Source: an uncultured Verrucomicrobiae bacterium
GTDB lineage: Bacteria; Verrucomicrobiota; Verrucomicrobiia; Limisphaerales; Palsa-1400
Length of the DNA stretch: 64,000 nt
NCBI GenBank assembly: GCA_963702845.1
Contig: OY969763.1
Coordinates: 4,256,001 to 4,320,000, forward strand
Direction of reading: 5' to 3'
Shown here in pieces: positions 28,361 to 63,290 of this stretch. Made by a program: the position numbers and the translations under genes. Position 1 is the first letter of the stretch. Each line of letters opens with the position of its first letter. The notes beneath the pieces were generated by a model. The model was given only the letters and a program-made list of their open reading frames with translations. It did not search any database and was not told the DNA's origin.

Positions 28361-28657
28361 GTGCGCATTTGTAGCACACGTTTTTCCGAAAGCTTTTGAA
28401 GGCAACTAGACGACACGAACCAACGCGAATCTCCGTACACTCTTCGCGAACCAACGCGAAAATTTTTGGCGAAAAAAAGTTTTGACAGGGTTTCAGACAA
28501 CCCCAAAGCGGGTTGAAGCATCCAGCCCAGGTGTTGAGGAGGGATGCGGGGCTCTACCCTGGGTAACCCGCCTCAACCGCAGATTCACTTTGCCGAAGGC
28601 GCGACGAAGGAGTTAAAAACCCATCTTCAGCAAGAGCCGCAACCTGCGCTAAAACGC

Positions 28658-28709
28658 TTGTTCGCGGATTAAAAATATGCGCACTGTTGGCGCAGATTAA
28701 TTGTTCGGT
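28658..28709 (+). repeat. attI-like repeat type A, copy 1 of 11
   Basis: Consensus TTGTTCGCGGATTAAAAAYATGCGAACWGTTGTCGCAKATTAATT-GTTRRRY; copies start at 28658, 29175, 30412, 30807, 32551, 38672 (partial), 53704, 54134, 62192, 62758 (partial), 63095. Confidence 0.8.
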
Positions 28710-28721
28710 GAAGGAGATCCT

Positions 28722-29051
28722 ATGAAGAAAATCTTGCTGTCTGTTTCGTTGATCGCCATGTGCATCTTGATGATCGCGGCCGAGTCTACGCAATCCACAG
28801 TCGACGAGAAGACCGCTCGGAAGCTGGCGGCTGAGCAGTATAATCAATTGTTCCTCGGTGCGTATTTGCTTCTAGGCTCGAACTATATTCAGTTTCCAAA
28901 GCTCGACCCAACATCCTTCGACACGGTTAAGGTCAAAGATGGATGCTGGCAGGTGGTTATGGATCCACCACAAGGCTGGTATGTCGATTCGAAGGTGTCG
29001 CTGGATGGTAAGTGGGTACAAATCACCCGTGCTGGTTTCTCTCCGGATTGA
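28722..29051 (+). CDS. Cassette-like secreted hypothetical protein
   Basis: AAGGAG RBS right after type A repeat; signal peptide. Confidence 0.65.
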   Translation: MKKILLSVSLIAMCILMIAAESTQSTVDEKTARKLAAEQYNQLFLGAYLLLGSNYIQFPKLDPTSFDTVKVKDGCWQVVMDPPQGWYVDSKVSLDGKWVQITRAGFSPD

Positions 29052-29236
29052 GACGACAAATTTCACGCGGGGACTGCGGCGGCAACGAAGGCGTTCTCGG
29101 TGGATGCGGGTTTCGGCACCACCACCGTCTTCATGACCTCCATCGCGCCAAACCTGCGCGCCACCTTTAAAACATTGTTCGCGGATTAAAAATATGCGAA
29201 CTGTTGGCGGATGTTAACTGGTAGACCTGCGCTAGC

Positions 29237-29782
29237 ATGAAGAAAGCGATTCCATTCGTTGCCTTGATCGTTGCTGGCATCTGCATGGTGGTAGCCGTTT
29301 ACTTTTGCCACTTCTATTACACCCGCGAATTGGAGAGCCGCCTCAATTACTTCGACCACCGGCTTGCCACTCTCGAAGCTCACAAGTCTCGACAGCTTAC
29401 CCCAGTCCGCGTTTGGGCAGTGATTTCCACCAGTGACAAGCCAGCCGACGAGGGTCTTCGGTTTTATCTTTCTTCGGAGAAGCACCGGGACGATTTCTTC
29501 GAGGCCATTGGCGCGAAAGGCGGCCCTCTGGTTCGACCAGAGCTTCGCTTGCCCGCTGGCTCGATCACCAACTGTACGTATGATATTCAGGTTGGGAGCC
29601 AGTTTGGTATTGTGGCTGATGCCTGGCTGTCGCACGCCGCGCCATATCAGGATTTGGCCGCATTCGACGAGTTTCGCGTCTACTCTCCGAATAGGACGAA
29701 CATCGTGAGACTAATTGCACGACCCAAACCCGGTGCTTCCGTCCAGATGCGGTTTAATATTGTGCTGTTGTGTGAGCAGTAA
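29237..29782 (+). CDS. Cassette-like membrane-anchored hypothetical protein
   Basis: Starts 11 bp after type A repeat; N-terminal TM. Confidence 0.65.
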   Translation: MKKAIPFVALIVAGICMVVAVYFCHFYYTRELESRLNYFDHRLATLEAHKSRQLTPVRVWAVISTSDKPADEGLRFYLSSEKHRDDFFEAIGAKGGPLVRPELRLPAGSITNCTYDIQVGSQFGIVADAWLSHAAPYQDLAAFDEFRVYSPNRTNIVRLIARPKPGASVQMRFNIVLLCEQ

Positions 29783-29794
29783 TTTGACGACGGA

Positions 29795-29953
29795 TCAGCT
29801 CGTCCATTTCCAATCGCGGATCTCCGGCATGTCGTCGCCGTGCTCGCGGATGTAATGTTTGTGTTCCATGAGTTTGTTTTGGATGGCCTGTTTGGCGTAG
29901 GCGGCCCGCGCGCCCAGTTGCGGCAGGCGGTCGATCACGTCGGCGAAGAGATG
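29795..29953 (-). pseudogene. xfp: 3'-terminal fragment of phosphoketolase (xfp)
   Basis: HLFADVIDRLPQLGARAAYAKQAIQNKLMEHKHYIREHGDDMPEIRDWKW matches the phosphoketolase C-terminus. Confidence 0.8.
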
Positions 29954-30007
29954 CGTTTTGTTGCGCTTGATTCGCAGCGGCAGCAGAACAATAGTCTGCT
30001 CAACCAA

Positions 30008-30070
30008 TATGAACCAACCGTTCGTATATCAAAATGACCGCGATACCCCGTCGCATAATCATTGTTAGGC
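30008..30070 (+). repeat. attI-like repeat type B, copy 1 of 5
   Basis: TATGAACCAACCGTTCGTATATCAAAATNACCGCGAYACCCCGTCGCATAATCATT-GTTRRR; copies start at 30008, 31302, 50664, 54816, 55589, with GTT always 56 nt downstream. Confidence 0.8.
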
Positions 30071-30082
30071 GGATTTCAAGTT

Positions 30083-30382
30083 ATGCGCTTTATCGGATAC
30101 GTTTTGCTGTTAGTTGGTTTTTTGTGGCTGGTTGTTTGGTGCGCTGGCTCGGTTGTGCCGTTGATTCGGAATATCGGGATTGGACATTTCAAGCAGTATT
30201 CTCCCACAAAGACATATTCTGGCAGTGAAGTTTGCGATGGGATTCGTAGTGCGCTCATTGAGTATCAGGACAATGCGCACGGAGTTGTTTTGCCAGCCAC
30301 GCTAATGCTGGGTGGCGGAGTTTTGCTGGATTTAGCTGGCCGCCGGAAAATCAAACAAGGAGATGAGAAGCGATCCGCCTAA
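30083..30382 (+). CDS. Integron cassette membrane protein
   Basis: Bounded by GTTAGGC (30064) and GCCTAAC (30377), which contains the stop codon. Confidence 0.7.
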   Translation: MRFIGYVLLLVGFLWLVVWCAGSVVPLIRNIGIGHFKQYSPTKTYSGSEVCDGIRSALIEYQDNAHGVVLPATLMLGGGVLLDLAGRRKIKQGDEKRSA

Positions 30383-30477
30383 CCATGCGCGGCGCGCCAC
30401 CTTTAAAACCCTTGTTCGCGTCTTAAAAATATGCGAACTGTGGTCGTGTATTAATTGTAGGTTGTTGCCGCCCTTTT

Positions 30478-30762
30478 ATGCCAAAGCCAGATCACATTTT
30501 GAGTTTCGCGACGGACACGGACGGCGATCAGTTGTTCATTCACGCCGACGCTAAGGGCTTGGACCATTTGATTCGTTCGCTTACGCATATCCGGAAGAAG
30601 CTCGACGAAAATTATTGTGACCACGACCACCTAATGACTGACGCTTGGGGAGGCAGGGAGCTTTCAGAGCGGAGCATGCCAGACGGCATTCATTTGATTC
30701 ATCACGTCAAGATTTATGGCTGGACTGCAGAGTGGGTCCAGAAACATGGGTTATCGTCCTAA
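30478..30762 (+). CDS. Imm32-like immunity protein (cassette)
   Basis: IHADAKGL..L, HDHLMTDAWGGRELSE; stop lies in TCCTAAC. Confidence 0.7.
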   Translation: MPKPDHILSFATDTDGDQLFIHADAKGLDHLIRSLTHIRKKLDENYCDHDHLMTDAWGGRELSERSMPDGIHLIHHVKIYGWTAEWVQKHGLSS

Positions 30763-30866
30763 CGGATGACGCCCGCGCTGATGGCGTAACACGTCGTTTT
30801 AAACCCTTGTTCGCGGATTAAAAATATGCGAACTGTTGGCGCAGATATAATTATCAAAACAGCAAA

Positions 30867-31181
30867 ATGAAGGTAGCTGAATACATATCCAGGACTGCCG
30901 GTTGGCTTCTGATTGCTGCAGTGCTTGCGATCGGCTTTGGCTTTATGTTTGGCGTGCCACAGTCGGGACTATATCGACGTGTCTTTGATTTCCTTTTTGT
31001 CGACTTGTCCTATGAACTCTTAAAGACTGGCGTCCCACAGTCAATTGTCTCAACTGCAGGACACATTCCGCACTTTACCGTTGTAGGGGTGCTTTTATTC
31101 TTTGTGCTGCCGGCAATTTGTTGTTTCGTTGTAGCCGGGCGACTCCACAGGCAACTTGGGCTAAACGATAAACGCCCGTAA
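30867..31181 (+). CDS. Cassette-like membrane protein
   Basis: Follows type A repeat; two TM segments. Confidence 0.55.
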   Translation: MKVAEYISRTAGWLLIAAVLAIGFGFMFGVPQSGLYRRVFDFLFVDLSYELLKTGVPQSIVSTAGHIPHFTVVGVLLFFVLPAICCFVVAGRLHRQLGLNDKRP

Positions 31182-31378
31182 GAGCGGCGCTACGCGCTCC
31201 ATTTCCAATTGTGGATCTCCGGCATGTCGTCGCCGTGCTCGCGAGCGCGTTTTGTTGCGCTTGATTCGCAGCGGCCGCAGAACAATAGTCTCCTCAACCA
31301 ATATGAACCAACCGTTCGTATATCAAAATCACCGCGACACCCCGTCGCCTAATCATGGTTAGGCCGCTGCGACATATC

Positions 31379-31954
31379 ATGCGAACATTCCGAAATTTGT
31401 TTATCCTCATGGGCCTTCTCTCATTTCTCTTCAGCGGTTGCATCAAGCGGCCAGAGGCACAGAGCCCAGCGAGTTCCAACAGATCGTCCGGGGAGGTGTC
31501 GTTCGAGAGGACAACGGGACTGCGTGACAAGGTCATTGCCAACTCAAAAGACCAAGCCAGCCTCCGCGAACTCGTGAGTCTGCTGGATGACAGCTCCGCC
31601 CTTAACAGGGCCAATGCGGCGGGATGCCTGCGTCAGCTTGGGCATAATAGAGTGACGCGAGATCAAGTTGCGCCGATCGCCGTTCCGGCGTTAGCTAGTC
31701 GAATCGACTCCGTAGGTCGCGAAGCACCGATTGCTCTGGGCGCTTATGGATCGCTTGCGGCGCCCGCGGTGCCTCAGTTGATACGAGCAGTCGAGCAGTA
31801 TCCAACGCAAGATACAGGGTGGTTTGCCGCAGAAGCGTTGGGTGACATCGGCCCCGCTGCGAAGGACGCAATTCCAGTACTCACGGCCGTTAAAGACAAG
31901 AAGTGGATCGGCGAATACGCGGCGAAGGCGTTGCGGAAAATCAACGGCATATAA
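31379..31954 (+). CDS. HEAT-repeat lipoprotein (cassette)
   Basis: LFSGC lipobox; AAEALGDIGPAAKDAIPVL; follows type B repeat. Confidence 0.7.
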   Translation: MRTFRNLFILMGLLSFLFSGCIKRPEAQSPASSNRSSGEVSFERTTGLRDKVIANSKDQASLRELVSLLDDSSALNRANAAGCLRQLGHNRVTRDQVAPIAVPALASRIDSVGREAPIALGAYGSLAAPAVPQLIRAVEQYPTQDTGWFAAEALGDIGPAAKDAIPVLTAVKDKKWIGEYAAKALRKINGI

Positions 31955-32103
31955 CGTAACCAGAGTCCTACAGCGGACGGCGGGTTGACCTGAGTTTGCA
32001 ATCCACGAAACGCTCCTACGCCGCAGCCGTCCGCTCTCGGCGATTGCGACGATAGGCGGGTTGGTGATATACAACCCGCTGTTCGTTGATTAATTGTTAG
32101 CTG

Positions 32104-32415
32104 ATGGAAGCGCTAAATAGATTGCAGCAATGGTATCGCTCCCAATGCGACGGCGTCTGGGAGCATTCATGGAGCGTTAGGATCGCCACCCTCGACAACC
32201 CTGGTTGGAGCGTCGATGTTAATCTTTGCGATACACCACTTGAGGGCAAGTCATTTAAGGAACACAGCTATGGGGTTGGCAGCGCCGCGACGACTAGCGG
32301 AGATGAGTGGATCGTATGCAAAGTCGAACAGAACGTATTCAAGGGTCGCGGCGGCCCTTTCAAGTTGCAGGAGTTGATTGAGGTGTTTCTTGATTGGGCG
32401 GAAAAGAACGGCTAA
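32104..32415 (+). CDS. Imm53-like immunity protein (cassette)
   Basis: LQQWYRSQCDGVWEH...IATLDNPGW; bounded by GTTAGCT (32096) and GGCTAAC (32410). Confidence 0.85.
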   Translation: MEALNRLQQWYRSQCDGVWEHSWSVRIATLDNPGWSVDVNLCDTPLEGKSFKEHSYGVGSAATTSGDEWIVCKVEQNVFKGRGGPFKLQELIEVFLDWAEKNG

Positions 32416-32611
32416 CCACCTATTAAGCCCGCGCGGTCGTTAGGCGCATTCCCGCTTTGCGCCTTGAAGTTTAACCCATCCGGTTTCACCTTCGCGCCAT
32501 CGGCGGCACCGACCCACGGTTTGCCTTCAATCATTGCCCCGTTAAATCCCTTGTTCGCGTCTTAAAACTATGCGAACAGTTGTCGCATATTAATCGTTAG
32601 TCGCGCACCAC

Positions 32612-32917
32612 ATGAGAGCCAAAATGCCAGAGTCTCCGTTAGAGTTTTGGATATGGTTCGCCGTTATTGCCATTGTTTGTGTCGGAGCCTGTCGGTTTTC
32701 TCGTCGTTGCTATTGGCTCGCTGCCCCTTTCGCAAGTTTTCTGCTTTATCAGGGGTGGAGCCTTCTTTATGCAAACGTTAGCTTCAGCGGCGAATTACTG
32801 TCGCAACTAGGATTTAGCTACTGGCTTCAGTTCGCCCTATCGTATGCGCTCCCATTGATTAGCATTGCAGTTTACGCCATCTACGATTTCAGGTATCGAA
32901 AGAAACATGCGGACTAA
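32612..32917 (+). CDS. Integron cassette membrane protein
   Basis: GTTAGTC (32596) matched by GACTAAC (32912). Confidence 0.7.
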   Translation: MRAKMPESPLEFWIWFAVIAIVCVGACRFSRRCYWLAAPFASFLLYQGWSLLYANVSFSGELLSQLGFSYWLQFALSYALPLISIAVYAIYDFRYRKKHAD

Positions 32918-33004
32918 CCAAAGCGTTCCAGCGGCCGGCGGGACGACGCTGTATTTTCAATCCTTGAGTCAGTGGCCCGCCACCGCTGAGTTTGTGTGTT
33001 AGGC
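32912..33004 (+). other. attC site (complete)
   Basis: GACTAAC...CAGCGGCCGGCGGG...CCCGCCACCGCTGAG...GTTAGGC, imperfect palindrome of 93 bp. Confidence 0.8.
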
Positions 33005-33014
33005 GACTCAATTT

Positions 33015-33305
33015 ATGTCTCGAAGCGTTCACACCTCACGTCCGAAGTTCCGGAAAGCAGCGAAATATGATTATTCGTCCGAGGGCGAGCGTATTCGCGT
33101 GCTCGGGAAGATCGCCGATGAGATTATGCTTAAACGAACGATGAAGGCAAACGCTCGAATCGAGAAACAGGGCCAGAAGGCTGGCCTCAAGCGATCGCGC
33201 ATTTATGTGGAGCACCGCGCCGCCGCGTCGAAAAAGAGTCCGCCAACACCGGAAGCACAGGAGTTGGTGAAGAAGAATTACCTCGGGAGTAAGAGTTATG
33301 GTTGA
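33015..33305 (+). CDS. Basic hypothetical protein (cassette)
   Basis: Starts 11 bp after attC core; degenerate attC at 33321-33366. Confidence 0.55.
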   Translation: MSRSVHTSRPKFRKAAKYDYSSEGERIRVLGKIADEIMLKRTMKANARIEKQGQKAGLKRSRIYVEHRAAASKKSPPTPEAQELVKKNYLGSKSYG

Positions 33306-33376
33306 GTGGAACGAGCGTAGGCCAAACCAGGCTGGTTCTGAGTGCCACTGACAAGCATTGTTAGGGCATCATTCAT

Positions 33377-33661
33377 ATGGCCAGAACCTTGAAGGTCGAA
33401 CTCGCGGTGCCGAATGCGCTCTCCGTTCAAGACTTGGTTCCCCAATTCCAGAATTTCGGTGAGGATGTTTATCGCGCTTTGCGAAATCAGTGTGAAATCT
33501 CTATTGAAGAGATTGACCATTTCGCTGGCGCGTTCCATTTGCGGGGCATTGACAAGCGTGATGTTCGGACCATCGCTGCAGACGTGCGCAAGATCCTTGA
33601 GAAGCATCATGGGCTCACAGATGTTAAGATTTACGAAGTTCTAGATGACCCAGATGCCTAA
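33377..33661 (+). CDS. Hypothetical protein (cassette)
   Basis: GTTAGGG at 33360; stop in GCCTAAC (33656); attC extends to about 33746. Confidence 0.65.
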   Translation: MARTLKVELAVPNALSVQDLVPQFQNFGEDVYRALRNQCEISIEEIDHFAGAFHLRGIDKRDVRTIAADVRKILEKHHGLTDVKIYEVLDDPDA

Positions 33662-34633
33662 CTTTTGCTCTAGCCAACCCGCCGATTGTCATCATGCGTT
33701 CATCCGGGCACTTCGTGCGGCGCGTGGCTGAACCGATTCGTTCGGGTCCGCTCTCGGTAATTCGAACGCTGATTACATAACAAAGTCAGTTGCGCGCCTG
33801 TCATCTGCGCTGCGTTGTTTTAATCATCGCTGTCGTGAGCAGCGCAGCCGCCAGTCGCTCAAGTTGGTACGAACCTTCGGCATCAGTTAGCCGCCAATAA
33901 AACCCAACGTCACAGGTTATCCAACGTCCCACGCTTCGCACGCACGACACCAATCGTGCTTCTTAATACCTCAACTTGTCGAACGCCCACCCGGCACGCG
34001 CTGTGCAGCCGGGCAGCAGATGCGCCAGGGCACTGAGATAATTGATTTTTAAATTAGTCAGTCAGTGCCCTGTCACATTTGCTGCTAATCCGTCTGCACA
34101 CCGCTTAGCCTCCGCTGCTTGGAAGTCAGAGGTCCAAAAGATTGTTTTGATGCTCGCGATTGGAGCGCTGGGTTGTCTGACGTTGGTTTCCGCGATCTAC
34201 CGCACCAGTTTTATTTTTTGATTTTTTTCAAAGTCAATGTGATGAAAAAAATACAAAAAATAAAACAGGCGCTAGTCGGGTTTCGTGGTTCGGTGTTGCG
34301 GTTTTATAATGATGGTGTTCATAAGCCAGTTCAGTTCTGGATGTCGTGCGGGTCGCCTCAGTGGTGCCTGCCGCGTTTGCCGTGGTGGGCGCAGTATTTG
34401 TGGGTGTTCATCGTGGTTATGGGTTGGTCCCGGTATTTTCCCCGTTCGCGTCAGCCGTGGCGGTATCGTTCGCGGCGGCGTTAGTCGCCCACGCGCAACC
34501 GTATTCCAACCACCCTCTTTGCCGCCTCGATGCTCGGCAGCAGTGCTCCACACGATTTCAGTTAGTGCGCAACAATCGCTCTGCGGGGATCCGGCTGGGC
34601 GGGGGTGAGCTAATCAGGCACGAAATATTTCAC

Positions 34634-35092
34634 TCATTTTTTATAAACCTGACGCTGCTCCAAGCTGGCGCGACTATCTAGAATATAGACGCCAGCGTGA
34701 CAGGTCTGACCGTGAAAAATAGCGCCCTCTTTAGCAATACACATGCTCAATTCAAAGTCGACGAAGCCGCCGGTCCAGCCCACTTCGATGTTGTTCGTAT
34801 TAAGCCATACGTTACCAGGCCTTAACGGCACCAAGAGCGCCGGCCACTGATTTGACTCGACGTTAGAAACATTAGTCGGTTGCAACGCTGAAATCAGGCT
34901 CATGCTTTGACTGTAAAGGTTGCTCCAGTCTTGTTGTGTATAAGTGGCAATACCCTGTGTGGCTTCTTTGATCTGTTTTTCGTAGGCGGCATTGCCAGCG
35001 GACATCGCCGCAAAATAGCCAATAACGTGAAGCACAGGGATTAATACGACTGTCGCAAGAACGACAATGATGCCTATTTTTAGAACTTTCAC
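34634..35092 (-). CDS. Membrane-anchored hypothetical protein
   Basis: 152 aa, N-terminal TM, lower GC than flanks. Confidence 0.55.
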   Translation of the reverse strand: MKVLKIGIIVVLATVVLIPVLHVIGYFAAMSAGNAAYEKQIKEATQGIATYTQQDWSNLYSQSMSLISALQPTNVSNVESNQWPALLVPLRPGNVWLNTNNIEVGWTGGFVDFELSMCIAKEGAIFHGQTCHAGVYILDSRASLEQRQVYKK

Positions 35093-35623
35093 GTGCGGCT
35101 GTTAGTTGCTCCTACAAGCAAAGTATCGTTACGGGGCGCGGTTATAAAGACAACATTTGTTCGCTTTGCTCAGAATATTGAGCGTCTCACGCCGCCTTGA
35201 TTTCCCCGCCGCACGCCGGCGGCACCCGCCCATTTTCCCCCTCGCGCACCAGCGCATTGCCCCCCTCGCGCGCTCCCCGCTCCCGCCCCCGCGCCCCCTC
35301 CCCCAGACCACGTTTACAGTTCCGCATTCGCGGTCGACGCGCGCCGCTGGGGGAGGGGGCAGGCGCGCTCGGAATAGCTAGCAACACTTCGCCCCCTCCC
35401 CCGCTAGGGAACGCGCGCCAACGCGAGCCCGTAAAGACAACCACCTCGCCTCCCGGCTCGCCCCGAAGACAAAGACAAAGACAGCCCAAAGACACCCGCT
35501 ACGCCCGGCGCAGGGTTGCTCTGGCACGCAGTTGAATCGCCAAGGCGATTCGCTGCTTAGCCGTTTTCAATCTCAGACGGCAGTCCAGCTTGAACTCTCC
35601 CTTCTTTCTGCCAACCTCCGTTC

Positions 35624-36181
35624 ATGCGGCAAAAAGCGAAGGTTGCGACCGTGATCCTTTTTGTCCTGGTATTGGTAATTGCCGCAGTTTGGTCGATGAC
35701 TCGTTCTGCACCGGTTACGGTCATGATCCCAAACGGTCCAACACTCACGTTGGTCGACACGACATTCAACGAACCACGTCATGCCGCTCCAAAAAGCAAC
35801 CCAGTAGCACGTGTATTGCAAAAGCTTTTCCTTCGCGTTCCAGAATCTTACCGCCCTCGTTTTTTGCAAAGGCAGTTCAAAATGGGTTTCCTCCACGCCG
35901 TAGACGATACAGCAGTATTTTGGTTCACCGAAAACCCAAGTAAAACCAACGGCGCCCTTCGCACGTGGTGCCCTGTTCAAGGCCGCATATGGGAGCTGGA
36001 TTTCAGATTCCCGAACACTCCAGGAATAGTCGGCATCGTATGCCACCATTGCCCAACAAACGAACCAACGTTGACCATATCATTTTACCGCGCGAACGAA
36101 GGCGTTGTACTGAGGAGCGACATGATCGAATCGAACCTATTGGCCCAAATTTCAGTTAAAAATCCAGCGTATCAGAAATGA
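35624..36181 (+). CDS. Membrane-anchored hypothetical protein
   Basis: N-terminal TM; PVTVMIPNGPTLTLVDTTF. Confidence 0.55.
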   Translation: MRQKAKVATVILFVLVLVIAAVWSMTRSAPVTVMIPNGPTLTLVDTTFNEPRHAAPKSNPVARVLQKLFLRVPESYRPRFLQRQFKMGFLHAVDDTAVFWFTENPSKTNGALRTWCPVQGRIWELDFRFPNTPGIVGIVCHHCPTNEPTLTISFYRANEGVVLRSDMIESNLLAQISVKNPAYQK

Positions 36182-37280
36182 CAACCCCCGCCGCGCAAGC
36201 GTGAGTCCATCGACTCGCTCGTCGCTTGCTTCGCCTCTCCGGCGTGCCAAGGCACCGTCGATGTCCTCACCCTTGCGCAGCCCCACAGAGCCAGACTCCG
36301 GCAGTTGATCCGCTACACTCCGCTAACGTTGCGCGAGCGCCAATCGAACCGCTCCGATTGGCTTGCTCGCTTCACTACCGCTCCGTTTCGCTTCTCAGCC
36401 TCCGGAGACTGGCCATTTCCCCAAGGCCAGCACATCACTGCAACTAGCTCCAGAAACGCTCGCAAGCTTGCTGACTTCCGCTGCGTCGCAGTCATGTGCA
36501 GGCCTCCCGAATCTAGTCTGACCTCTGCGCAAAAGCCTGCGGTATCGCCGAACACTGGCCACGTCTCCCACTCCAGCACGGCGACATCCTCAGCTTCCGC
36601 GCACACGTCAGAGAGCCGCGACCACCGCGAGCCCGTTACGAAGCGACCCCGCGAGAAATTGCTAAGCTCCGTTCAGAACGTGGCCGTGTGCAAACACTCA
36701 TGAAGGATGCTTCCGATCTACAGACACAAGTGACGTTATATTACGTGCCGCCCCACGGTGGCAGCGTGCAAACGCCCGGTATCCGCTGCGCAGAACCTCC
36801 GGCCGTGGGTCCCCGCCGTTTCACTGAGTCGCGTGAACGCTCCCACTCAACGGCCCGGTTCACTAAGATATAACATCGTCTTGTGTCCATAGACCTGGCT
36901 CGCTTGGCACGCTCACATGCTTAAACGCTGATCTTCCCCGCCATCAGCGTTGCAGTGCGCGCGCCAATCGAGCCTCGCATCCTTCACGCCACGCCTCCAC
37001 TCCGCAGCTGAAGCAGGCAGGCGGGGTCGCTTTGTTTGACTAAACGCGCTCAGTCGGCGCTCGCCATTCCCCTGAGCCCTAAAGGTGAGTCCAGACACCG
37101 TCTGGTTCCTTTTCACCCTCTGCTGGCCACTCGACCATCGCCCTCACCGGGCCGCTTTCCGTCAGGGGACAACGTGGCGCCTTCTGAAGACTACTTCCAC
37201 TGTCCGCCTGCCAACGCGGCCTTTCTCGGATGAAGGGCGACAGTCCGAGAGCGCACAGCAGAGCAGTCAAAAAAAAGAAC

Positions 37281-53341: not shown

Positions 53342-53397
53342 AGCATAACCCGCCGCCGCTGAGCTGTGTGTTAGGCAGCAAACAAACCGGAGCACGT

Positions 53398-53607: not shown

Positions 53608-53767
53608 AGTATGCAAACCGAGCCCAACAATCGTGCTGGAGCGGCCGCCGGGACAACGCTGCGTTTTGAATCCTGCCTTCAATCATTGCCCCGTTAAAAC
53701 CCCTTGTTTGCCTATTAAAAACATGCGAACAGTTGTTGTATATTAATTGTTAAGCTTTTGTAGGGAA

Positions 53768-54052: not shown

Positions 54053-54195
54053 CATGCGCTGAGCTTGGTCGTTAAACATTCTTCACCCGCACGCTGCTCT
54101 CGATGATGCCCGCGCTGATGGCGTTTTAAACCCTTGTTCGCGGATTAAAAACATGCAAACTGTTGTCGCAGATAAATTGGTAGGCCAAAGTCTCC

Positions 54196-54684: not shown

Positions 54685-54887
54685 GGACCGATTAATTCCC
54701 TCGTTACGCACTCCATTTCCAATCGCGGATTTCCGGCATGTCGTCGCCGTGCTCGCGAGCGCGTTGTGTTGCGCTTGCTTCGCAGCGCCAGCATAACAAT
54801 AATCTCCTCAACCAATATGAACCAACCGTTCGTATATCAAAATCACCGCGACAGCGTGTCGCATAATCATAGTTGGCCTGTGAGCGC

Positions 54888-55358: not shown

Positions 55359-55652
55359 GAATCGTGGAGGCCAACAAGCGTGCTGGAGGCACGGGCCGGA
55401 TTGCCTCTTCGTTCCATGTTTTACATCCTCGGCTGGCCCTGCCTCAGCACCATCGTTAGACTGCTTCGCCCTTTCCCTACGAACTCCATTTCCAATCGCG
55501 GATCTCCGGCATGTCGTCGCCGTGCTCGCGAGCGCGTTCTGTTGCGCTTGATTTGCAGCGGCAGCAGAACAATAGTCTCCTCAACCAATATGAACCAACC
55601 GTTCGTATATCAAAATCACCGCGATACCCCGTCGCATAATTATAGTTAGAAG

Positions 55653-55871
55653 ATGGGACACGCGATGGCGAACCAAGAGGATGATCCAGATGCCGCAGCA
55701 CTCGCCGAGCGCTACCCGAGCTTGCGCCGAATCGGCGAGCGGATGAAGATTGAGTCCGGCCCACTGGCTGGAGAGCCGGTTGTGATTCGCAGGCGGCTCA
55801 CCGAGCGCGGAGTATTATTCACATTCAGATATGATGACGGAAAGGTTCGAGAGTGGGAGTGGTGGGATTGA
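55653..55871 (+). CDS. Small hypothetical protein (cassette)
   Basis: GTTAGAA (55645) matched by TTCTAAC (55881); full attC 55881-55973. Confidence 0.65.
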   Translation: MGHAMANQEDDPDAAALAERYPSLRRIGERMKIESGPLAGEPVVIRRRLTERGVLFTFRYDDGKVREWEWWD

Positions 55872-55990
55872 GACCGCTTGTTCTAACTATCGTGCTACAC
55901 TCGACGCGGCGATGACGCTTCTGTTTCAGTTCGAACATCGCGGACGCCGCGCGAGTGAGCGCCGGCGTTAGACCACTTCGGGAGGCACCA

Positions 55991-56641
55991 ATGCTTTTCG
56001 CAATTCTGGACTACATAAACTACAGACGCAGACGGGGACATTACAGCGATGAGAGTATCCGCAAAGAAGGTGGGCGTTTGGCCGCACCGGAGAACTTTCC
56101 CATGCTTCTAGATCTGGGTCCTCGGCACAGGTTTGTCTATCACACGCGGGACTCGTTTTTGAGTTGGCTGGTCATGTATTATACGGCGAGCGTTTGGAGT
56201 CACGTAGGAAACTTCACCGAGCGGGGACATATTATCGATGCAACGACGGCAGGTGTCATTGAGCATCCACTCTCAGACTACTTCGACGGAAAGAGCTACA
56301 TTATCATACTAGCGGCTAAAAAGGGCCTGGTTTCCGACGAGCAGCTTGCCAAATCTCTTGAGTGGGGACGTAGACAGATTGGCTGCGGATTCAATTGGCC
56401 GGGATTGCGGCGCTTCTTCTGGAGCATTGTCTTCGGTGCGCATGCTAATTATCGATTCCGTGTTTCTGGCGATATACTCATTTTGCTGTTGGTGCTATGT
56501 CCCCTGGCATATCTCAGTCACACCTTTGGCGTATTGCTTTTGCTCGTCTCAAGCCTATACGTTTTTATTGTTGTGATGAATACAACAAAGAGAAGGGCCA
56601 TGCGTCGGATGCTCACGGAGTCGGGCGTCAATTTGCGATGA
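55991..56641 (+). CDS. Permuted papain-like (YiiX/YebB-like) domain protein with C-terminal TMs (cassette)
   Basis: WSHVG..IIDAT..GV; GTTAGAC (55967) matched by GTCTAAC (56646). Confidence 0.55.
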   Translation: MLFAILDYINYRRRRGHYSDESIRKEGGRLAAPENFPMLLDLGPRHRFVYHTRDSFLSWLVMYYTASVWSHVGNFTERGHIIDATTAGVIEHPLSDYFDGKSYIIILAAKKGLVSDEQLAKSLEWGRRQIGCGFNWPGLRRFFWSIVFGAHANYRFRVSGDILILLLVLCPLAYLSHTFGVLLLLVSSLYVFIVVMNTTKRRAMRRMLTESGVNLR

Positions 56642-56758
56642 CTGGGTCTAACAAAATCACTGCAGCCAACGCCGGATGGTGCAGTCAGTTCCGCTTTCGC
56701 GGTTCACGTCATCGGCCCGGCGCGGTTGAGTTCTATCGGCCCTACACTTGATACGTAT

Positions 56759-57220
56759 ATGAAACGAGCTTTCTATTTGCTGTTGCTGATTTCGGGTATC
56801 TGCACCGCTCAAACGAAGTTTACCTTTTATCCCACGCAACACATTTTCACATTAGAAGGCAAAAGATACGCCACATCCATTGATGAAGCTGCACTTGAGG
56901 CAAGTCCGACATGGGACATGAGCAAACCTCCGCCGATCAGTTTCAAACAAGTAGTTGAGGTCGCTCGCAATGAGTTTGGAAAACGGCTGCGGGCCAAACC
57001 CGAATGGAGGGTTCGTTCGATCGAGCTTTACCCGGCGAACTCGCCGCACGAGGGAAAATGGTACTACGTAGTTTTGCTGGAACCTCAACCAAACGGAGGC
57101 CATACCGGAGAAAGTTTTACCACGCTGGTCGATTTTTCTGGCAAGCCGGGAAAGATAATATTGGACAGCGGCGACTCGTGGACGCAGCGCGAAAGCAAAG
57201 CGAACGGCAAAAGTCCCTAA
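56759..57220 (+). CDS. Secreted hypothetical protein (cassette)
   Basis: Signal peptide; stop in CCCTAAC (57215) followed by GTTAGGA (57229). Confidence 0.65.
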   Translation: MKRAFYLLLLISGICTAQTKFTFYPTQHIFTLEGKRYATSIDEAALEASPTWDMSKPPPISFKQVVEVARNEFGKRLRAKPEWRVRSIELYPANSPHEGKWYYVVLLEPQPNGGHTGESFTTLVDFSGKPGKIILDSGDSWTQRESKANGKSP

Positions 57221-57249
57221 CGTAGTTCGTTAGGAGCATCCCAGCCATC

Positions 57250-57534
57250 ATGACAAATTCGGAGTGGAAGAACTGCATGAGGATCCTTCTTGCTGAACTC
57301 GAAGACGAGTTACCTTCCACCGTGTCCGCCGAAACCAAAACAGTGTTGCGGACATTTCGGAGTCGCCTTGACCTCAGGCATATGTCACCCGCAAACGTAA
57401 GCGGTTTGAGCGATCGTTGGAGGCGTGCATTCAGAGCAGCGCATCACTGCGAGGATCTGCGGAGCGATATATCAGCAAAGTTTTGCCGCAGACACTTGAG
57501 AGAGCGACGACCGCAGTCAATAGCGCTAGGTTAG
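57250..57534 (+). CDS. Hypothetical protein (cassette-like)
   Basis: Starts shortly after core site 57229. Confidence 0.4.
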   Translation: MTNSEWKNCMRILLAELEDELPSTVSAETKTVLRTFRSRLDLRHMSPANVSGLSDRWRRAFRAAHHCEDLRSDISAKFCRRHLRERRPQSIALG

Positions 57535-57653
57535 CGCTTGCGGGCTGTCGCTCTTGAGCTGCGTTATGATTCCTCCGAAACATATCGCCTCCCCAAACTG
57601 ATTCACCGTCGCCCCAATCCACTCAATCGCATTCACCGCAGTGGCACGGGAGT

Positions 57654-58637
57654 TTACTCAACGGGCGTAAATTCGGTATCCAAACTGAATTCTGAACCGC
57701 CGGCGGCAACGGGTTCGCGAATATTCTTCAATGCGGCTTCCGCTCTCTGGAAAAGAACAACATTTTCGCGGGCCGTTATCAAAACTGCCTCGGCGTCCGA
57801 AGCCAGGGATCCAAACGCGCCCACAGCGACGATTGCTTTTTTCTGAACGACTAAGGGCGGTTGTTGAATTGCAAGAATCAGTGCTGGAACGGCGATCTCT
57901 GGATGTCGCTGAATCCGGCCAAGCGTTTCGGCAGCCGCACCTGCGACGTTTGAATCCATGTCTTGCAAGCAAACGACCACGTTGCTGACAACGCCGCTTG
58001 CCGGGGAGCCTATGGTGCCCAAGGCATTGAGAATTTCAACGCGACGGACTGAATTGTTGTTTTTGCGCAGCGCATTCGCAAGTGAAGGAACGGCGGCGGG
58101 CCCAATGGACATAAGCAGATGCGTCGCATCGTCATCTGCCGTCGAGCGTGAAGCCATTTCTTCCAGTTGCGGAATGGCGGGCACGGCCAAAGGCCCCAAC
58201 GTCTTCAATACATTAAATGCGATCAGGTTCTTCAGGTGACCGTGATTATAAACGCTACCGGCGAGCTGGCTTCGCCATGAACGAGGCACATACTTCGAGC
58301 TTCCAAAACAACGAAGTGCAAGTTTTTCGAAGGGATTTGGTCTGGCGGTGAGCCACTGCATCAACATCGGAACGGCATTCGTTCCGATGTTGATCAGGGC
58401 GTCTTCCGCTTCATGTTCGCGCGGCTTCAATGCCTGCCCAGGCTGCCCGGGAAACATAGGCAGGCCATACGTGTGGGTGATGTGCACATGGTAAAGCTGG
58501 AGCCATTCCGAAAGACGGATGTCTTTGTAGACCGGATCGGGAGCTTTGGGACGGCAGAAAGCGAACGCGAGCGCAGACGCAATACCGACAACGAGTAGAA
58601 GCAGCCATTTGGATTTGCGCGCCCAACTCATCTGCAC
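57654..58637 (-). CDS. Membrane-anchored HEAT-repeat protein
   Basis: PDPVYKDIRLSEWL, IGTNAVPML, LGPLAVPAIPQL; same style as 19288-20346. Confidence 0.75.
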   Translation of the reverse strand: MQMSWARKSKWLLLLVVGIASALAFAFCRPKAPDPVYKDIRLSEWLQLYHVHITHTYGLPMFPGQPGQALKPREHEAEDALINIGTNAVPMLMQWLTARPNPFEKLALRCFGSSKYVPRSWRSQLAGSVYNHGHLKNLIAFNVLKTLGPLAVPAIPQLEEMASRSTADDDATHLLMSIGPAAVPSLANALRKNNNSVRRVEILNALGTIGSPASGVVSNVVVCLQDMDSNVAGAAAETLGRIQRHPEIAVPALILAIQQPPLVVQKKAIVAVGAFGSLASDAEAVLITARENVVLFQRAEAALKNIREPVAAGGSEFSLDTEFTPVE

Positions 58638-58691
58638 AGGAGCCTAGCGAAGTCATATGAAAATGAAAGAGTGATCAAAACAACCGGCCGT

Positions 58692-59867
58692 TCATTGCGG
58701 AGCGATCGCGTTGGGGGCACGATACCGGAGCAACAGTTGTTCGGCGGTGTCTGCGATTCGCGTTCGCAACGCTTCCGGTGCAACCACCGTCGCACGCGTC
58801 CCCCAACTCAACACCCATCGCTCGACTTCTTCCAACCCACTCAACCGCATCCGCATTCGTGATGCACCGCCCGGCATTTCCGTAATCTCCTGACTTGAAT
58901 GCCATTTCCGGCCGCGCAGTTGGTCCGTTGCAAAGGCGTCGAAGTCAATCACCACCTCATAATCACCGTCACCCTTCATCATCCCGAGGCTGTCGCGAAA
59001 ATAGTTTGCGGCATCGAATCTATTCGGTCGCGTGAACCGCTCAGCTAAAACCTGCGCCTTCCCCATGCGCGCCAGCGCGAAAGTCCGAATATCCGCACGC
59101 AACTCATCATGTCCCAGGAAATACCACCGATTATCAGAACACATCACATGATACGGATGCACCCGCCGCACGATCGCATCCTTCTCGCCTGCGTTCCGAT
59201 AAACAAACTCCATCACCTTCCGTTCCCGACGCGCCCGCGTCACCATCTCGAACAATTCCAGATCCGCGTCCTCCGGCGCAAACGGCCGAAACGACAACGC
59301 CTCTGCAAAATCCTCAACTGAAAACCGCTCCTTGCTATCCAACTGCGCTAACATCTTCTTGAACGCAGTCGCCAACAGCGGATGGAACGGCGTGCCGCGA
59401 TACTGCTCAATCGCTTTGTTCGCAACCAACCATGCAAACATCTCCTTCTCCGTAAGAGCCGACGCACCGGGAAATCCATTCACCTGCTTCGAATAATAAT
59501 ACCCGTGCCGCACCGCATCATATTCGATCGGCAGCGCGTAATGATCGCGCATGTAATCAATGTCCCGACAAATTGTTTTGTGCCCGATCTCAAGCTCTGC
59601 CGCCAACTGCATCGCGTTAACGCATCTGCCATCGGCAATCACCTGGTGAATCTTGAACATCCGTTCCAGCGGCCCGCGCCGCACCCGCTCCGGCTCCAAC
59701 TCCGCATCCTGTTTGCGTACACGCCGCAGCAACGCCTTTTCAGCCCTGCCGACATCCAGCCGCACCGTTTGTTTTGTTTCGTTTGTTTGACTCCCCTCGC
59801 CCATGTCCGAGAACAGTGAATCTGCGCGTTGAACCGAACCAATCTGTAGCTTTTTTATCATTTTCAT
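58692..59867 (-). CDS. HTH-WYL-WCX transcriptional regulator (PafBC/BrxR/CapW-like)
   Basis: LAAELEIGHKTICRDIDYMR HTH; RRVHPY..RWYFLG..RTFALARM WYL; WVLSWG...PEALR. Confidence 0.9.
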   Translation of the reverse strand: MKMIKKLQIGSVQRADSLFSDMGEGSQTNETKQTVRLDVGRAEKALLRRVRKQDAELEPERVRRGPLERMFKIHQVIADGRCVNAMQLAAELEIGHKTICRDIDYMRDHYALPIEYDAVRHGYYYSKQVNGFPGASALTEKEMFAWLVANKAIEQYRGTPFHPLLATAFKKMLAQLDSKERFSVEDFAEALSFRPFAPEDADLELFEMVTRARRERKVMEFVYRNAGEKDAIVRRVHPYHVMCSDNRWYFLGHDELRADIRTFALARMGKAQVLAERFTRPNRFDAANYFRDSLGMMKGDGDYEVVIDFDAFATDQLRGRKWHSSQEITEMPGGASRMRMRLSGLEEVERWVLSWGTRATVVAPEALRTRIADTAEQLLLRYRAPNAIAPQ

Positions 59868-60097
59868 CCCCGAATCCTACCAACCTCACTTGGACAAAGG
59901 CTGTCCAAGTGAAAATCTTTTTTTGGGGGCACCAGCGCGTGGCGACAGACGTAAAAGAACGTTACCCGACTATTGGCTCAAGGGCTGCAATGGCTGGCCA
60001 CTCCCAGTTGACTGTCCACACTCAGAGGCGCAGCATACACCACGTAAATCAACCCGATGTGAGGTAATATGTTGTTGGTTAGACTGCGAGTATTTCT

Positions 60098-60286
60098 ATG
60101 AACAACAAAACGTCCGCGCAAAGTGCCCGAAGGTGGGGATGGCCGATTCTCGGTATCATCGCTTTCGGAGTTTTGATGGGCGCACGAAAGCAGTTTCACT
60201 CTATTTGGTTGCGTTCGTTGGTCGCAGCGTGCGCGTTCGCAGTTCTCGCAGTTTCGTTACCGTTATTTCGGAGGACCAGAAATTGA
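60098..60286 (+). CDS. Small membrane protein (cassette)
   Basis: GTTAGAC (60078) matched by GTCTAAC (60294). Confidence 0.6.
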   Translation: MNNKTSAQSARRWGWPILGIIAFGVLMGARKQFHSIWLRSLVAACAFAVLAVSLPLFRRTRN

Positions 60287-60693
60287 AAACGCTGTCTAAC
60301 AAAAGCGCCCCAACTTCGCTCAAAGTTCTATGCGCCGTCGTCATAATTTTGCTTCTCGCTTGCGTTGGCTTTTTGGCGAACGCCGTTTGGACGAATTTCT
60401 GGTGGAAGCAGCAGGTTTACGGGCTCGCACGATATCAAGGTGCCACCCGAGCGCTGCACGATTTTCAGTCTGGCAGGCTGCGACTCTTTGTCGTTGCGGG
60501 CGAGCGCGACACCGATAAATTTTCCGGCACAAATGAGGGTCCGTTTGATATTCGGTTTCCGCAGTATTATCAGAAGTCATTCCCTATGCGTTATTCGGTC
60601 GAGCAGATGGTTGACATGTATAACGAAAAAATGCGCTATATGCGTGAGCGTCCAGACAAGTTCCTGAGCACGACAAACAGCCCGAAAAAATGA
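60283..60693 (+). CDS. Membrane-anchored hypothetical protein (cassette)
   Basis: C-terminal part of ORF 59890..60693; followed by attC 60704-60796. Confidence 0.55.
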   Translation: MKTLSNKSAPTSLKVLCAVVIILLLACVGFLANAVWTNFWWKQQVYGLARYQGATRALHDFQSGRLRLFVVAGERDTDKFSGTNEGPFDIRFPQYYQKSFPMRYSVEQMVDMYNEKMRYMRERPDKFLSTTNSPKK

Positions 60694-60982
60694 CACGTCC
60701 CCACCCTAACTTTCGCGCTCCATCGAACGGCTGGTTGACGCTACGTTTGCAATCCATGAGTCAGTGGCCCGCCGCCGCTAATCTGAATTGTTGGGCAGGA
60801 AAAAAGTCGGAGCACGTATGAACATGAAAAGCATCATTTCGAGAACCGAGTCTCTGCAGATTCTCAAGAATCAGCTTCGGAAGGATGCGCTGGAAAAGCG
60901 GGCGGCTGAGCTGAAGGACGCCTGTTTAACCCAACCAATTTCGCCTTTGCGCCGACCAATTCACCACCGTCGTTTCGCGCCT

Positions 60983-62021
60983 CTATCCTTTCTTACTGGT
61001 TGTTTTTTGAAGTTTTAGGTATAGCGCCGCTGCCCCGAGACTTAGCACTGTAAACAAAATATAAACACCCAACCGATCCGATTTCGGTGTTTGACCGTGC
61101 ATCGCAACGTGGGCTGGTTGTCGCGGTTTAACCAAAACCCCATTTGTATTGCGGACGAAGAGCACGTTATTGCTATAGAAATTGGTAAGCTGGATGTTCG
61201 TTGTTGCGAGCCGTGCAACAGAAAAAAAGTCGTTCGGCAACCCAGCAGGGGCAGTTTTTACTTCAAGAAGTGCCAATTCCAAAATGGCCTTCATTTCACC
61301 TTCCACTGGTGACGAGATAGTCATGCGTTCAGGGAACCCACCGAGCTGGGTAGCAAGAACGGGAAATACATACGAAATTATCCTGAACGGCTTCACTCTT
61401 CCCTTTAATCGCAGGGAAAGTTTAACAGGCACATCGTTCGATAAGCTAAGCTCGCCCAGAACCTCGTTTCCACTCGGCGCAATAGCAGTTAATTCAGTGC
61501 CATGCCACTCGATTTTCTGAAGGTCGAAATCGGGAACTCCCATGTTCAAAAACTGACCAACATAAGCGGCAAATACACCCCCTGAAGAATCTACCGCGTT
61601 TTCCGAGTTAGAAACGCCAACAGATACCAACTTGCCAGCAACCTGATAGGTTTTTCCTTCATTCCGACCAACTAATTGAGTCCGATCTTCCCAACGAGGA
61701 CCATTTGAATCGCTCGCAACTATCGAGAAAAAAAAGTCGTTCCCTTGTCGACCGCCCTCGCAAAAGAATGTGATCGGCATCTCTACCTTCGGTGCTTTTG
61801 GCCCAACACTGAATGTAGGTACTCTTGCCGCGAAACCGTTCTACCGGAACAGGAGAGGTAAGCGCTCGCTTGAAAAAGGAAACTAAATCCAGGTCTCCGG
61901 ATTGGATTGTAGCAGCGCCAGCACTATGTGTAATGCCCAGAGAAGCAACGATAAAAACAAAGATTAGGGTAACATGCCGCCAAAGAGGGAACCTAATACC
62001 AGACAACGAGTCAAATATCAT
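60983..62021 (-). CDS. Low-GC secreted/membrane protein split by a frameshift near 61780-61830
   Basis: ORF 61659..62021 (signal peptide) and ORF 60983..61780 (C-terminal TM) are contiguous. Confidence 0.45.
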
Positions 62022-62237
62022 ACGCCAATTGCCGCAATTTTCGACAAAAAAACAATGTATTGCTCAAGACCTAATCGTGTCAAAACAACGGTCACGCGTA
62101 TATCACTCAATTGGGGTATTCTTACGATGCAAGATCCACGGCCACCTTGTCTATCCACCCGAAGCGTCAGGAGTTTGAACCTCAAAAACCCTTGTTCGCG
62201 GATTAAAATTATGCGAACAGTTGTCGCATTAATTGTT

Positions 62238-62630
62238 ATGCCTAAGCGTCACAAAATCCCTTTTGCCAATCGGAACCACTCCGGATGGTGGATTTTTCGT
62301 GAGGTGGAGCAGTGGGTATCGAAGAACAAGAAGCCATCGCCCCGAAGTCGTTATCCGATCTGGGAGAACACCCGATTGCTCCGCGCGAAGAACCGGAAGG
62401 AAGCATACCGCAAAGCATTGAAGCTGGGCCGCGAAGGGCATCCGTCTAAAACCAAGGAGGGCGAGTGGCGCTTCGCAGGCATTTCCATGCTCCTGCCGGT
62501 CTATGAAGACATCGAAGACGGAGCAGAGATTCTCTGGGTGGATCGTGGCTCTCTGCGACTCAGCAGCATCCGGAAGCTGGTCAAATCTAAGCGCCAGCTC
62601 CCCATTTTCGATGACAACGAAGAAGCATAA
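62238..62630 (+). CDS. DUF4288-like protein (cassette)
   Basis: WENTRLLRAKNRKEAYRKALKLG..WRFAGI..EDGAEI; GTTATGC (62235) and GCATAAT (62625). Confidence 0.7.
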   Translation: MPKRHKIPFANRNHSGWWIFREVEQWVSKNKKPSPRSRYPIWENTRLLRAKNRKEAYRKALKLGREGHPSKTKEGEWRFAGISMLLPVYEDIEDGAEILWVDRGSLRLSSIRKLVKSKRQLPIFDDNEEA

Positions 62631-63290
62631 TTATCGCGCTGCATTTCACGCGGGGACTCCGCCAGCAACGAAGGCGTTCTCAGTAGATGCAGGTTTCGGC
62701 ACCACCACCGTCTTCGCAACCTCCATCGCGCCAAACCTGCGCGCCACCTCCAAACACTTGTTCGCGGATTAAAAATGTGCGAACTATTGGCGTATGGCCA
62801 CATTGATTTACTGACTGGGGAGGCAGTGCTTGAAGGAGATGTCGTAAAACTCCACACTTGGTCATGTGTTGTCGTTACGGTCGTTCAGCCAGGTAGCCCG
62901 GACTGGGATGATTACGGAGGCATTTCACTGAAATGTTTGGAAGGCGGGCCGATTCGACTTGAGCGCGTCAATGAGGATCTCATTTTAGTCAGTCGGAAGG
63001 CTTCGCGATGAATTGCCTAACGAGACTATAGTTTCGGCACCACACCGTCTTCGCAACCTCCATCGCGCCAAACCTGCGCGCCACCTTTAAAACATTGTTC
63101 GCCGATAAAAACTATGCGAACAGTTGTCGCAGATTAATGGTTAAGCCGGCACTCCATATGTCCCCGAAACGCTTATTCAAATTTGCGCTTTTCACCATAG
63201 CTATCGTCGGGTTTGTCGTTTACCGCACGTTCGCAAACAACCGTTACTGCATCTCGGGAAAATGCGGGTTGCAGAAATCTTGAACGATCG

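Follow-up and report, generated by a model that had tools for sequence, protein, structure and literature searches.

Integron-type cassette arrays with probable attI-derived boundaries in a capsid-gene island of an uncultured Verrucomicrobiae bacterium

In integron theory, each integron has one attI site, located beside the integrase gene intI. Unusual cassettes of the ΔattI type, found in class 1 and class 2 mobile integrons, carry a partial or complete attI where attC would otherwise be (Partridge et al. 2009, as cited in Gonzales Machuca et al. 2026, PMC12901181); the parts of the latter paper drawn on here give 110 such cassettes in 1,742 integrons, state that IntI1 recombines them, and include one cassette with complete attI1 on both sides and another retaining 244 nt of attI2. 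Clusters of attC sites without an integron integrase are known as CALINs (Cury et al. 2016, PMC4889954); in the portions of that survey used here, half of the surveyed CALINs were in genomes without IntI, and attI was unknown for most integrons and therefore not searchable. Phages and prophages carry cassette arrays, attC and attI sites, and CALINs (Qi et al. 2023, PMC9892861, also used in part). We analyzed 64,000 nt of DNA from an uncultured Verrucomicrobiae bacterium (the window; positions 4256001–4320000 of a single-contig 6.03-Mb genome, OY969763.1), which contains two arrays of short genes separated by attC sites and by two other repeats, types A and B. Both arrays lie within a capsid-gene island at tRNA-Asp, and it is likely that they consist of integron-type cassettes whose A and B boundaries derive from attI and were moved within modules.

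Array 1 spans 28646–33745 and array 2 spans 50664–63142, with a small hot spot at 38505–39480. Across the two array stretches we counted approximately 26 short plus-strand open reading frames (ORFs), close to the 25 of the original prediction, which had been made from the letters of the sequence alone. That prediction placed the arrays in a single span, 28650–63290; the arrays were recovered, but approximately 33750–50660 is island backbone with terminase, primase, helicase and exonuclease genes. All nine heptamer pairs named as cassette starts and ends were exact reverse complements (GTTRRRY/RYYYAAC type). In repeat finding, type A corresponded to families D2 and D3 (9–10 copies) and type B to D5 (5 copies); the other families were a 154-nt long A (D4), a 173-nt long B (D1) and a 91-nt attC-like repeat (D6). 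Profiles built from the window copies and run genome-wide returned 11 A copies in the window (10 full and a tail-only copy at 38672–38705) and 5 B copies, the same counts as predicted. Across the genome, A had 49 matches at E ≤ 1 (38 at E ≤ 1e-6) and B had 35 (31 at E ≤ 1.3e-11), with about 69 A and B copies spread over at least 20 loci. The two types share the tail GTCGCAKAWTMATNGTT, which had 5 exact matches in the window and 8 more with 1–3 mismatches, ending at a cassette start; genome-wide, 23 exact matches were found vs. approximately 0.02 expected by our own arithmetic. One of two predicted variant sites (32060–32102) was recovered with 3 mismatches (GTT at 32096), whereas the other (60040–60084) is weak and is not found by the profile. 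Recognizable attCs numbered seven, plus several with internal deletions, vs. 15–16 A or B copies, and attI-type sites made up about two thirds of the cassette boundaries in the window.

A and B are not attC sites, in agreement with the prediction, because they lack an end-to-end fold and are not matched by an attC covariance model. An attC has inverted homology of the form R''-L''...L'-R' and forms a bottom-strand hairpin of 57–141 nt. The bottom strands of four canonical attCs (32909–33006, 55366–55464, 55878–55975 and 60702–60798) paired end to end. Eight A and B units that were folded gave small local hairpins only (z-scores from −0.02 to −1.94), without an R'' partner. The covariance model, built from six seeds of IntI-positive relatives and six of this genome and run with filters off, found again the five window seeds and two non-seeds (56646–56740, E = 2.4e-11; 33655–33745, E = 0.003), all seven on the plus strand and within the arrays. 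No match at E < 1 covered any of the 15 full A or B cores; the sole partial overlap (53622–53712, E = 0.42) is an attC left half that overlaps A#6 in its first 21 nt only. Internal deletions affect many attCs, and weak partial matches fell on deleted mini-attCs (32410–32445, 53342–53376 and 54020–54077) and on two hybrids of an attC left part with an A tail. A purely geometric attC finder was too noisy and was discarded.

In A units, the crossover box is immediately preceded by an inverted repeat of the 8-7-8 type, ATATGCGA-N7-TCGCATAT (e.g., 32566–32588). Among 38 copies, three compensatory cells were observed and the outer pairs were often mismatched; a conserved hairpin structure in A was dropped, since this covariation was too weak. 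The GTTCGC/GCGAAC repeat of A was almost invariant. On the minus strand, a run of T follows the ATATGCGA/TCGCATAT repeat and gives it the look of a weak terminator.

Judged by alignment, the A tail is homologous to the attI found between intI and the first cassette of complete integrons. IntI scored above the cut-off in 16 of the 61 genomes searched (60 relatives and this genome). Within the family, IntI of 316 amino acids (277–281 bits; 84–93% identical) occurred in four genomes belonging to four genera, the integrase of relative G027 scoring 278.3 bits vs. the cut-off of 265. In G027, G025 and G015, intI starts 48 nt from a GTTAGGC; the 48 nt between the intI start codon and the first cassette are nearly identical (TTGGCCAWTGTAATAYACGAACAACCTGTTGTATATYAATTGTTAGGC) and end in ...ACGAACAACCTGTTGTATATYAATTGTTAGGC. 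By eye, the A consensus tail aligned with this attI over about 40 nt, and the window copy at 53733–53751 matched its last 19 nt at 19 of 19 positions. The check proposed earlier, for the repeat between intI and the first cassette of complete integrons, was thus positive for type A in these three relatives. The integrons of G025 and G027 continue with uniform attCs of approximately 99 nt. In another IntI-positive relative (G013, 972–1279), a second attI lies 2.4 kb into the array with 267 nt of the intI 5′ end; this truncated copy (about 88 codons) is 89% identical to the first intI, which is itself followed by an attC-like hybrid in place of the usual attI.

The genome under study has no integron integrase by the searches made. 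TIGR02249 gave no match above 265 bits in the genome (the best, Xer-like, scored 85.9 bits), and tblastn with the G027 IntI returned only Xer genes at 28–29% identity and no intI remnant. As predicted, the window has no tyrosine recombinase, either in a six-frame genome search with PF00589 or in a Pfam scan of 87 window ORFs. The strong tyrosine recombinases of the genome were two Xer-type genes and at least seven of island type. No intI, the gene for a tyrosine recombinase with the IntI-specific insertion, adjoins the arrays, as it would in a complete integron. The intI flanks of the four relatives had no blastn or tblastx match here and no deletion scar was located, and nothing in this genome corresponds to the DNA encoding their IntI proteins. 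The trans-acting host IntI originally suggested is therefore not supported. Outside the species set, a metagenome scan for A beside intI gave three contigs of a close relative, none with intI. On one of them (L046, approximately 3001–3100), an A site lies directly against the 3′ end of the kinase orthologue, with no intervening cassette, and the point at which the two kinase genes diverge is the scar junction of the long A units of the window.

The crossover point was located by comparing copies. The genome contains at least four paralogous islands, each copy with its own integrase, and A#1 (28646–28705, plus strand; GTT at 28703–28705) occupied the identical backbone position in all four island copies compared. 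Over the 1.9 kb that lead up to A#1, the window island and island copy 1 were 92% identical; within about 6 nt of the GTT they became unrelated. Island copies 4 and 5 showed the same break, and across the two pairs the sole shared stretch was the A core of approximately 62 nt. Nine B units carrying the same scar had a mean pairwise identity of 90.2% in the core vs. 34.8% in the 20 nt after GTT. Conservation thus stops at the GTT, as had been noticed, with the G|TT crossover of a GTTRRRY box and variable sequence to its right, as in an attI. A#1 of the island backbone probably acts, or acted, as the attI of the island, and we infer that A and B are related double-strand sites derived from an integron attI; in an attI, it is double-stranded DNA that the cognate IntI binds and recombines.

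Each internal A or B copy lies in a non-coding module in which a 3′ scrap of a gene that formerly bordered an array is joined to the attI-like site. The scraps, or scars, come from four different genes (phosphoketolase, Ser/Thr kinase, LuxR-type and terminase), which agrees with the earlier view that the stacked units have several sources. The minus strand of every long B unit contains the phosphoketolase 3′ end; a search for this gene found eight 3′ fragments and one full gene of 808 codons. At the full locus the order is B core, cassette, attC and convergent gene end, whereas in array units it is gene-end scrap, junction, left flank of B and B core; relative to that locus, the array units are therefore circularly permuted. 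Of 20 phosphoketolase fragments, 8–9 retain the native intergenic sequence of 31 nt, which extends as far as an attC G|TT, with differing attC halves upstream (in the window, 55455–55647). Since these scar modules start exactly at the attC crossover, modules of the form TT...scar...attI...G would have moved as gene-less cassettes. Long A units contain the last 85 nt of the Ser/Thr kinase gene and other A units the end of the LuxR-type gene, and ahead of the A-type tail beside the terminase gene lie 91 nt that copy the 3′ end of terminase. A region of more than 300 nt with tandem repeats of approximately 40 nt was observed upstream of the B core at genome positions 2197900–2198075 and 5448600–5448930, and part of it (CGCGTTTGTGCCAAAGGCCCAAGG...) also precedes the A core at 2346 kb.

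Identity among the nine B units was 96.1% in the scar, 91.7% in the left flank and 90.2% in the core. The functionless scars are no less conserved than the sites, which argues for recent spread rather than selection, and the pattern fits recent multiplication followed by decay after integrase loss. Several genes (e.g., 28722–29051, 29237–29782, 30867–31181 and 54196–54684) are followed by an A or B module without attC, the layout of ΔattI-type cassettes. The unit had been taken to be attI plus first cassette; it would be better read as cassette plus flank scar plus attI, with attI apparently standing in for attC as the 3′ terminus of the mobile module.

The proposed origin would start from a small unit made up of attI, one or more cassettes and the beginning of a neighboring convergent gene. 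Duplication or circularization of this unit through 1–3 nt of microhomology would have linked the gene fragment from the right flank to the sequence on the left of attI. Such units would then have been excised by an integron integrase and re-inserted, at G|TT, in attI or attC sites elsewhere, so that attI was copied together with its scar in the manner of a cassette and different genes came to stand in front of them. The genome is now without an integron integrase, and the arrays would therefore be either a recent fossil or mobile only through IntI arriving on foreign DNA. We infer the order of these events, the agency of IntI, and any present-day activity or promoter role of the sites from the arrangement of the DNA.

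Several observations weigh against an attI origin with IntI as the agent. The predicted attI identity held for the A tail, but type B was never beside intI in the genomes searched; B-like tails were seen in seven further genomes of the order, on contigs that lack intI, one of these genomes being complete and without IntI. The left half of A (TTGTTCGC...TGCGAAC) had 31 matches in this genome, 3 and 1 in two genomes of the same genus and 0 in the other 28 genomes of the family; it is genus-specific and has no counterpart in the attI of the relatives. GTT has been lost in 5 of the 10 full A copies of the window. The attC model is a custom one, different from that of IntegronFinder, and was built in part from the window's own sites. 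Of the 20 phosphoketolase scars, 11 begin later than the G|TT, and module junctions show 1–3 nt of microhomology; some of the shuffling must therefore have gone through illegitimate or homologous recombination. No recombination was observed and no integrase is present, so that the agency of IntI is read from the anatomy, and the arrays are those of the assembled contig.

An adaptive explanation, in which the copies were selected as promoters and as landing sites for cassettes on a platform with many attI sites, is possible, if unlikely. A -10-like hexamer lies 4–5 nt before the GTT (CATAAT in B, CATATT in A and TATATT in the attI of the relatives), most units have an ORF start 8–21 nt past the GTT, and A copies also head single genes at a minimum of eight other chromosomal loci. 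Yet a sigma-70 scan of 28400–34000 gave 2 matches vs. 4.1 expected, neither of which falls within an A or B site on the plus strand, and the sites have poor -35 regions. The phosphoketolase scar, without function, is better conserved than the B core (96.1% vs. 90.2%), so that recency alone explains the conservation. Half of the full A tails of the window are decayed, and no IntI is present to use the landing sites.

A wider reading goes further and seems to us rather improbable as a whole: attI would be a self-propagating mobile unit whose modules spread as cassettes through chromosomal arrays and capsid-forming islands; islands with a backbone attI could package the arrays and deliver them to new cells; the sites would be kept usable by IntI supplied in trans from integrons that cross genera, or by a recombinase other than IntI; and the -10 box of each attI copy would express the gene behind it, giving a distributed integron in which platform and enzyme are uncoupled.

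Repeated promoter stem-loops have been proposed to mediate gene exchange in the hyperplastic regions of T4-type phages. By analogy, A and B could be promoter/terminator repeats between which genes are swapped by homologous or microhomology-mediated recombination, independently of an integrase, an explanation to which we give a low probability. The absence of an integrase and the microhomology at the junctions speak for it, as do minus-strand A and B cores resembling weak terminators (a 5–8 bp stem followed by a run of T). It leaves unexplained the stop of homology at the G|TT of a GTTRRRY box, the exact reverse-complement heptamers of the cassettes, the scar modules that start at attC crossovers and the same tail beside intI in the relatives.

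It is very improbable that A and B are substrates of another recombinase, either the host XerC/XerD or the island integrases of 450–490 amino acids. Such enzymes are present in the genome (the two Xer-type genes and the island-type recombinases, one in each island copy), and the pre-crossover arm (TCGCATAA/T) resembles the XerC arm of dif, a 28-bp site with 11-bp arms on either side of a 6-bp centre. The spacing from arm to GTTA is 5 nt shorter than in dif, and the island integrase uses the tRNA-Asp repeat and is not similar to IntI. A scan of the genome with a dif consensus, allowing up to seven mismatches, and with looser sub-patterns gave no dif-like site with which A and B could be compared, and the idea was dropped. 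Least probable of all is an unusual attC family: A and B end in GTTRRRY and occupy the position of attC after the cassette gene, and chromosomal integrons have homogeneous attCs (PMC12901181, in the part used), but the units hold gene fragments and have neither an R'' partner, nor an end-to-end bottom-strand hairpin, nor an attC-model match at E < 1 covering the core.

The carrier of these cassettes with probable attI-derived boundaries is a 46.9-kb island. Window positions 1–21400 contain ordinary chromosomal genes (Pfam scan of window ORFs), among which an EF-G-like gene is split into three ORFs (14495–16698) and a short-chain dehydrogenase into two overlapping ORFs (9017–9839), through either frameshifts or assembly indel errors. 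The island extends from approximately 21400 to 4.3 kb beyond the window end. A 24-nt direct repeat of the tRNA-Asp 3′ end marks its left end (21398–21421), and the other repeat copy, at tRNA-Asp, its right end (genome positions 4324275–4324298, 4.3 kb past the window). The nearest tyrosine recombinase to the window is the island integrase of 451 amino acids beside tRNA-Asp, 2.9 kb past the window end; it is not IntI, and no similarity to IntI was found on comparison. The terminal repeats bear out the prediction that the arrays are on a mobile element, and the tRNA-adjoining integrase and the head and packaging genes are those of an integrated phage-like island. Because no tail gene was recognized within the island (PHROGs and Pfam; 46 ORFs scanned across the window), it is not established that this is a complete prophage.

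The head module (22624–28405, minus strand) comprises a head-tail adaptor (22624–23208), a virion protein (23524–24390), a scaffold protein (25838–26650) and the portal (26663–28405), all by PHROGs and Pfam. The replication and packaging backbone (39520–47195, minus strand; Pfam and PHROGs) encodes large and small terminase subunits, a Prim-Pol primase, a Dda/PIF1-type helicase and a PD-(D/E)XK exonuclease. Just past the small terminase gene, three tandem repeats of approximately 50 nt ending in GCGTCCGARGCGTCCGA (family D10; 41752–41885) possibly serve the island in packaging or replication. Integron-type cassettes occupy three hot spots: array 1 in the portal-terminase interval, the small one beside the terminase gene and array 2 past the replication genes. 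Array 2 is broken into parts 2a and 2b by backbone (57654–59867, minus strand) encoding a HEAT-repeat protein and a conserved WYL/WCX regulator (Pfam), whose gene region (58783–59915) is 96.6% identical to island copy 1. No Rfam family reached its gathering score across the window. The cumulative GC skew of the genome has its maximum near 2.21 Mb, close to the full phosphoketolase gene and B arrays (2.185–2.199 Mb) and one island copy (2.22–2.25 Mb).

In array 1, where all sites are on the plus strand, A#1 is followed by a cassette gene without attC (28722–29051) and by a kinase-scar module with A#2 (29056–29222; scar 29056–29147, A#2 tail decayed), the 3′ end of the full kinase gene lying at genome positions ~2346020–2346104. 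The long form of the phosphoketolase scar with B#1 (29803–30066; XFP_C at 40.8 bits on the minus strand, GTT at 30064) precedes a cassette gene (30083–30383) that ends in the R'' GCCTAAC, the exact reverse complement of the start heptamer at 30064. A#3 (30392–30462) stands directly after this R'', with GTT decayed to GTA, and is followed by an Imm32 cassette (30478–30762) and then a LuxR-type 3′ scar with A#4 (30763–30850; tail decayed, no GTT). The short phosphoketolase scar (46 nt) with B#2 (31190–31360; GTT at 31358) leads to a HEAT-repeat cassette (31379–31954), and a hybrid site (31952–32098), consisting of the left and central part of an attC and then an A-type tail (GTT at 32096), leads to an Imm53 cassette (32104–32415). 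A mini-attC with a gene-less module comes next (32410–32598; internally deleted attC 32410–32446; A#5 32539–32598, GTT at 32596), then a canonical attC (32912–33004; end-to-end fold, 84.7 bits, a model seed) and the last attC of the array (33655–33745; 21.7 bits, E = 0.003, non-seed). Homology to another island copy resumes at 33755. Imm32 and Imm53 are immunity-protein families and, at a single-copy A site elsewhere (genome position ~1547250), the protein looks TIR-like by eye; a cargo of conflict systems is therefore suggested.

The hot spot beside the terminase gene (38505–38700, plus strand) consists of the terminase 3′ scar (38505–38595, 78% identical to 39522–39612), a hairpin unit and an A-type tail (GTT at 38698), and heads a gene (38748–39479) that adjoins the terminase gene. 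Array 2 begins with B#3 (50664–50722, plus strand; GTT at 50720). An IS110-family element (51031–52780, minus strand; transposase 51515–52666) is inserted immediately downstream of a cassette R'', and a full attC (52688–52780) comes next; the genome has five other copies at 95–99.5% identity, at least one of which (near 3665664) is in the same attC context. The remaining sites of array 2 are on the plus strand. An attC left half is fused to A#6 (53622–53751; A#6 53692–53751, GTT at 53749), a mini-attC is followed by a LuxR-type scar and A#7 (54047–54183; GTT decayed to GGT), and the short phosphoketolase scar is joined to B#4 (54704–54874; GTT at 54872); the block 54128–54874 recurs at genome positions 179051–178306 with 96% identity. 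An attC (55369–55461) and a complete attI-type module with G|TT at both ends occupy 55369–55647, the module being TTAGAC, the native phosphoketolase intergenic stretch, the scar and B#5 (GTT at 55645). Two canonical attCs (55881–55973 and 56646–56740) surround one cassette (55881–56740). Array 2b includes a canonical attC (60704–60796), A#8 (62180–62243) heading a DUF4288 gene, a kinase scar with A#9 (62643–62806; tail decayed) and a partial kinase scar with A#10 (63031–63142; GTT at 63140), which heads a conserved DUF2071 gene.

To our knowledge, integron detection tools look for intI and attC only; with two thirds of the boundaries being attI-type, such arrays would therefore be under-called or split. 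The scars are a readable record of array-flanking DNA that would have been packaged and copied like a cassette, and they bear on how cassettes and their sites arise. The attI-like site in the backbone of a multi-copy capsid island suggests a transduction-like route for whole arrays between cells. If IntI supplied in trans does use A and B, genomes without intI would be active in cassette exchange rather than dead ends.

The attI of the relatives (G027, G025, G015 and G013) is like A over about 40 nt up to G|TT; it lies 48 nt from intI and occurs once or twice in the DNA fetched around intI, the other boundaries there being uniform attCs of ~99 nt. A limited literature search, which makes for a weak negative, found no printed account of a genome-wide multiplication of complete attI sites. 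The arrays fall under the definition of CALINs (PMC4889954, as far as used here) in having cassettes with attC and no intI nearby; CALINs are defined by attC, whereas about two thirds of the boundaries here are attI-type and would not be called by attC-based tools. Unlike the phage-borne integron parts in the portions of PMC9892861 used, the carrier here is an island present in several copies that encodes head and packaging functions and has no recognized tail genes, and the attI-like site is a conserved backbone feature of the four island copies compared. The closest described counterpart, within the parts of PMC12901181 drawn on, is the ΔattI-type unusual cassette, which shares the attI-derived 3′ site and the layouts attI-ORF-attI or attC-ORF-attI. 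In contrast to those cassettes, which belong to the variable region of integrons with IntI, the attI here is full length (about 60 nt or more) with host-gene scars, the copies number about 69 in one genome at no fewer than 20 loci without IntI, and sites occur in the backbone of a capsid island. The arrays are thus set apart by their scale, by full-length sites with host-gene scars, by the absence of IntI and by a backbone attI, as we read A#1, in a capsid-gene island.

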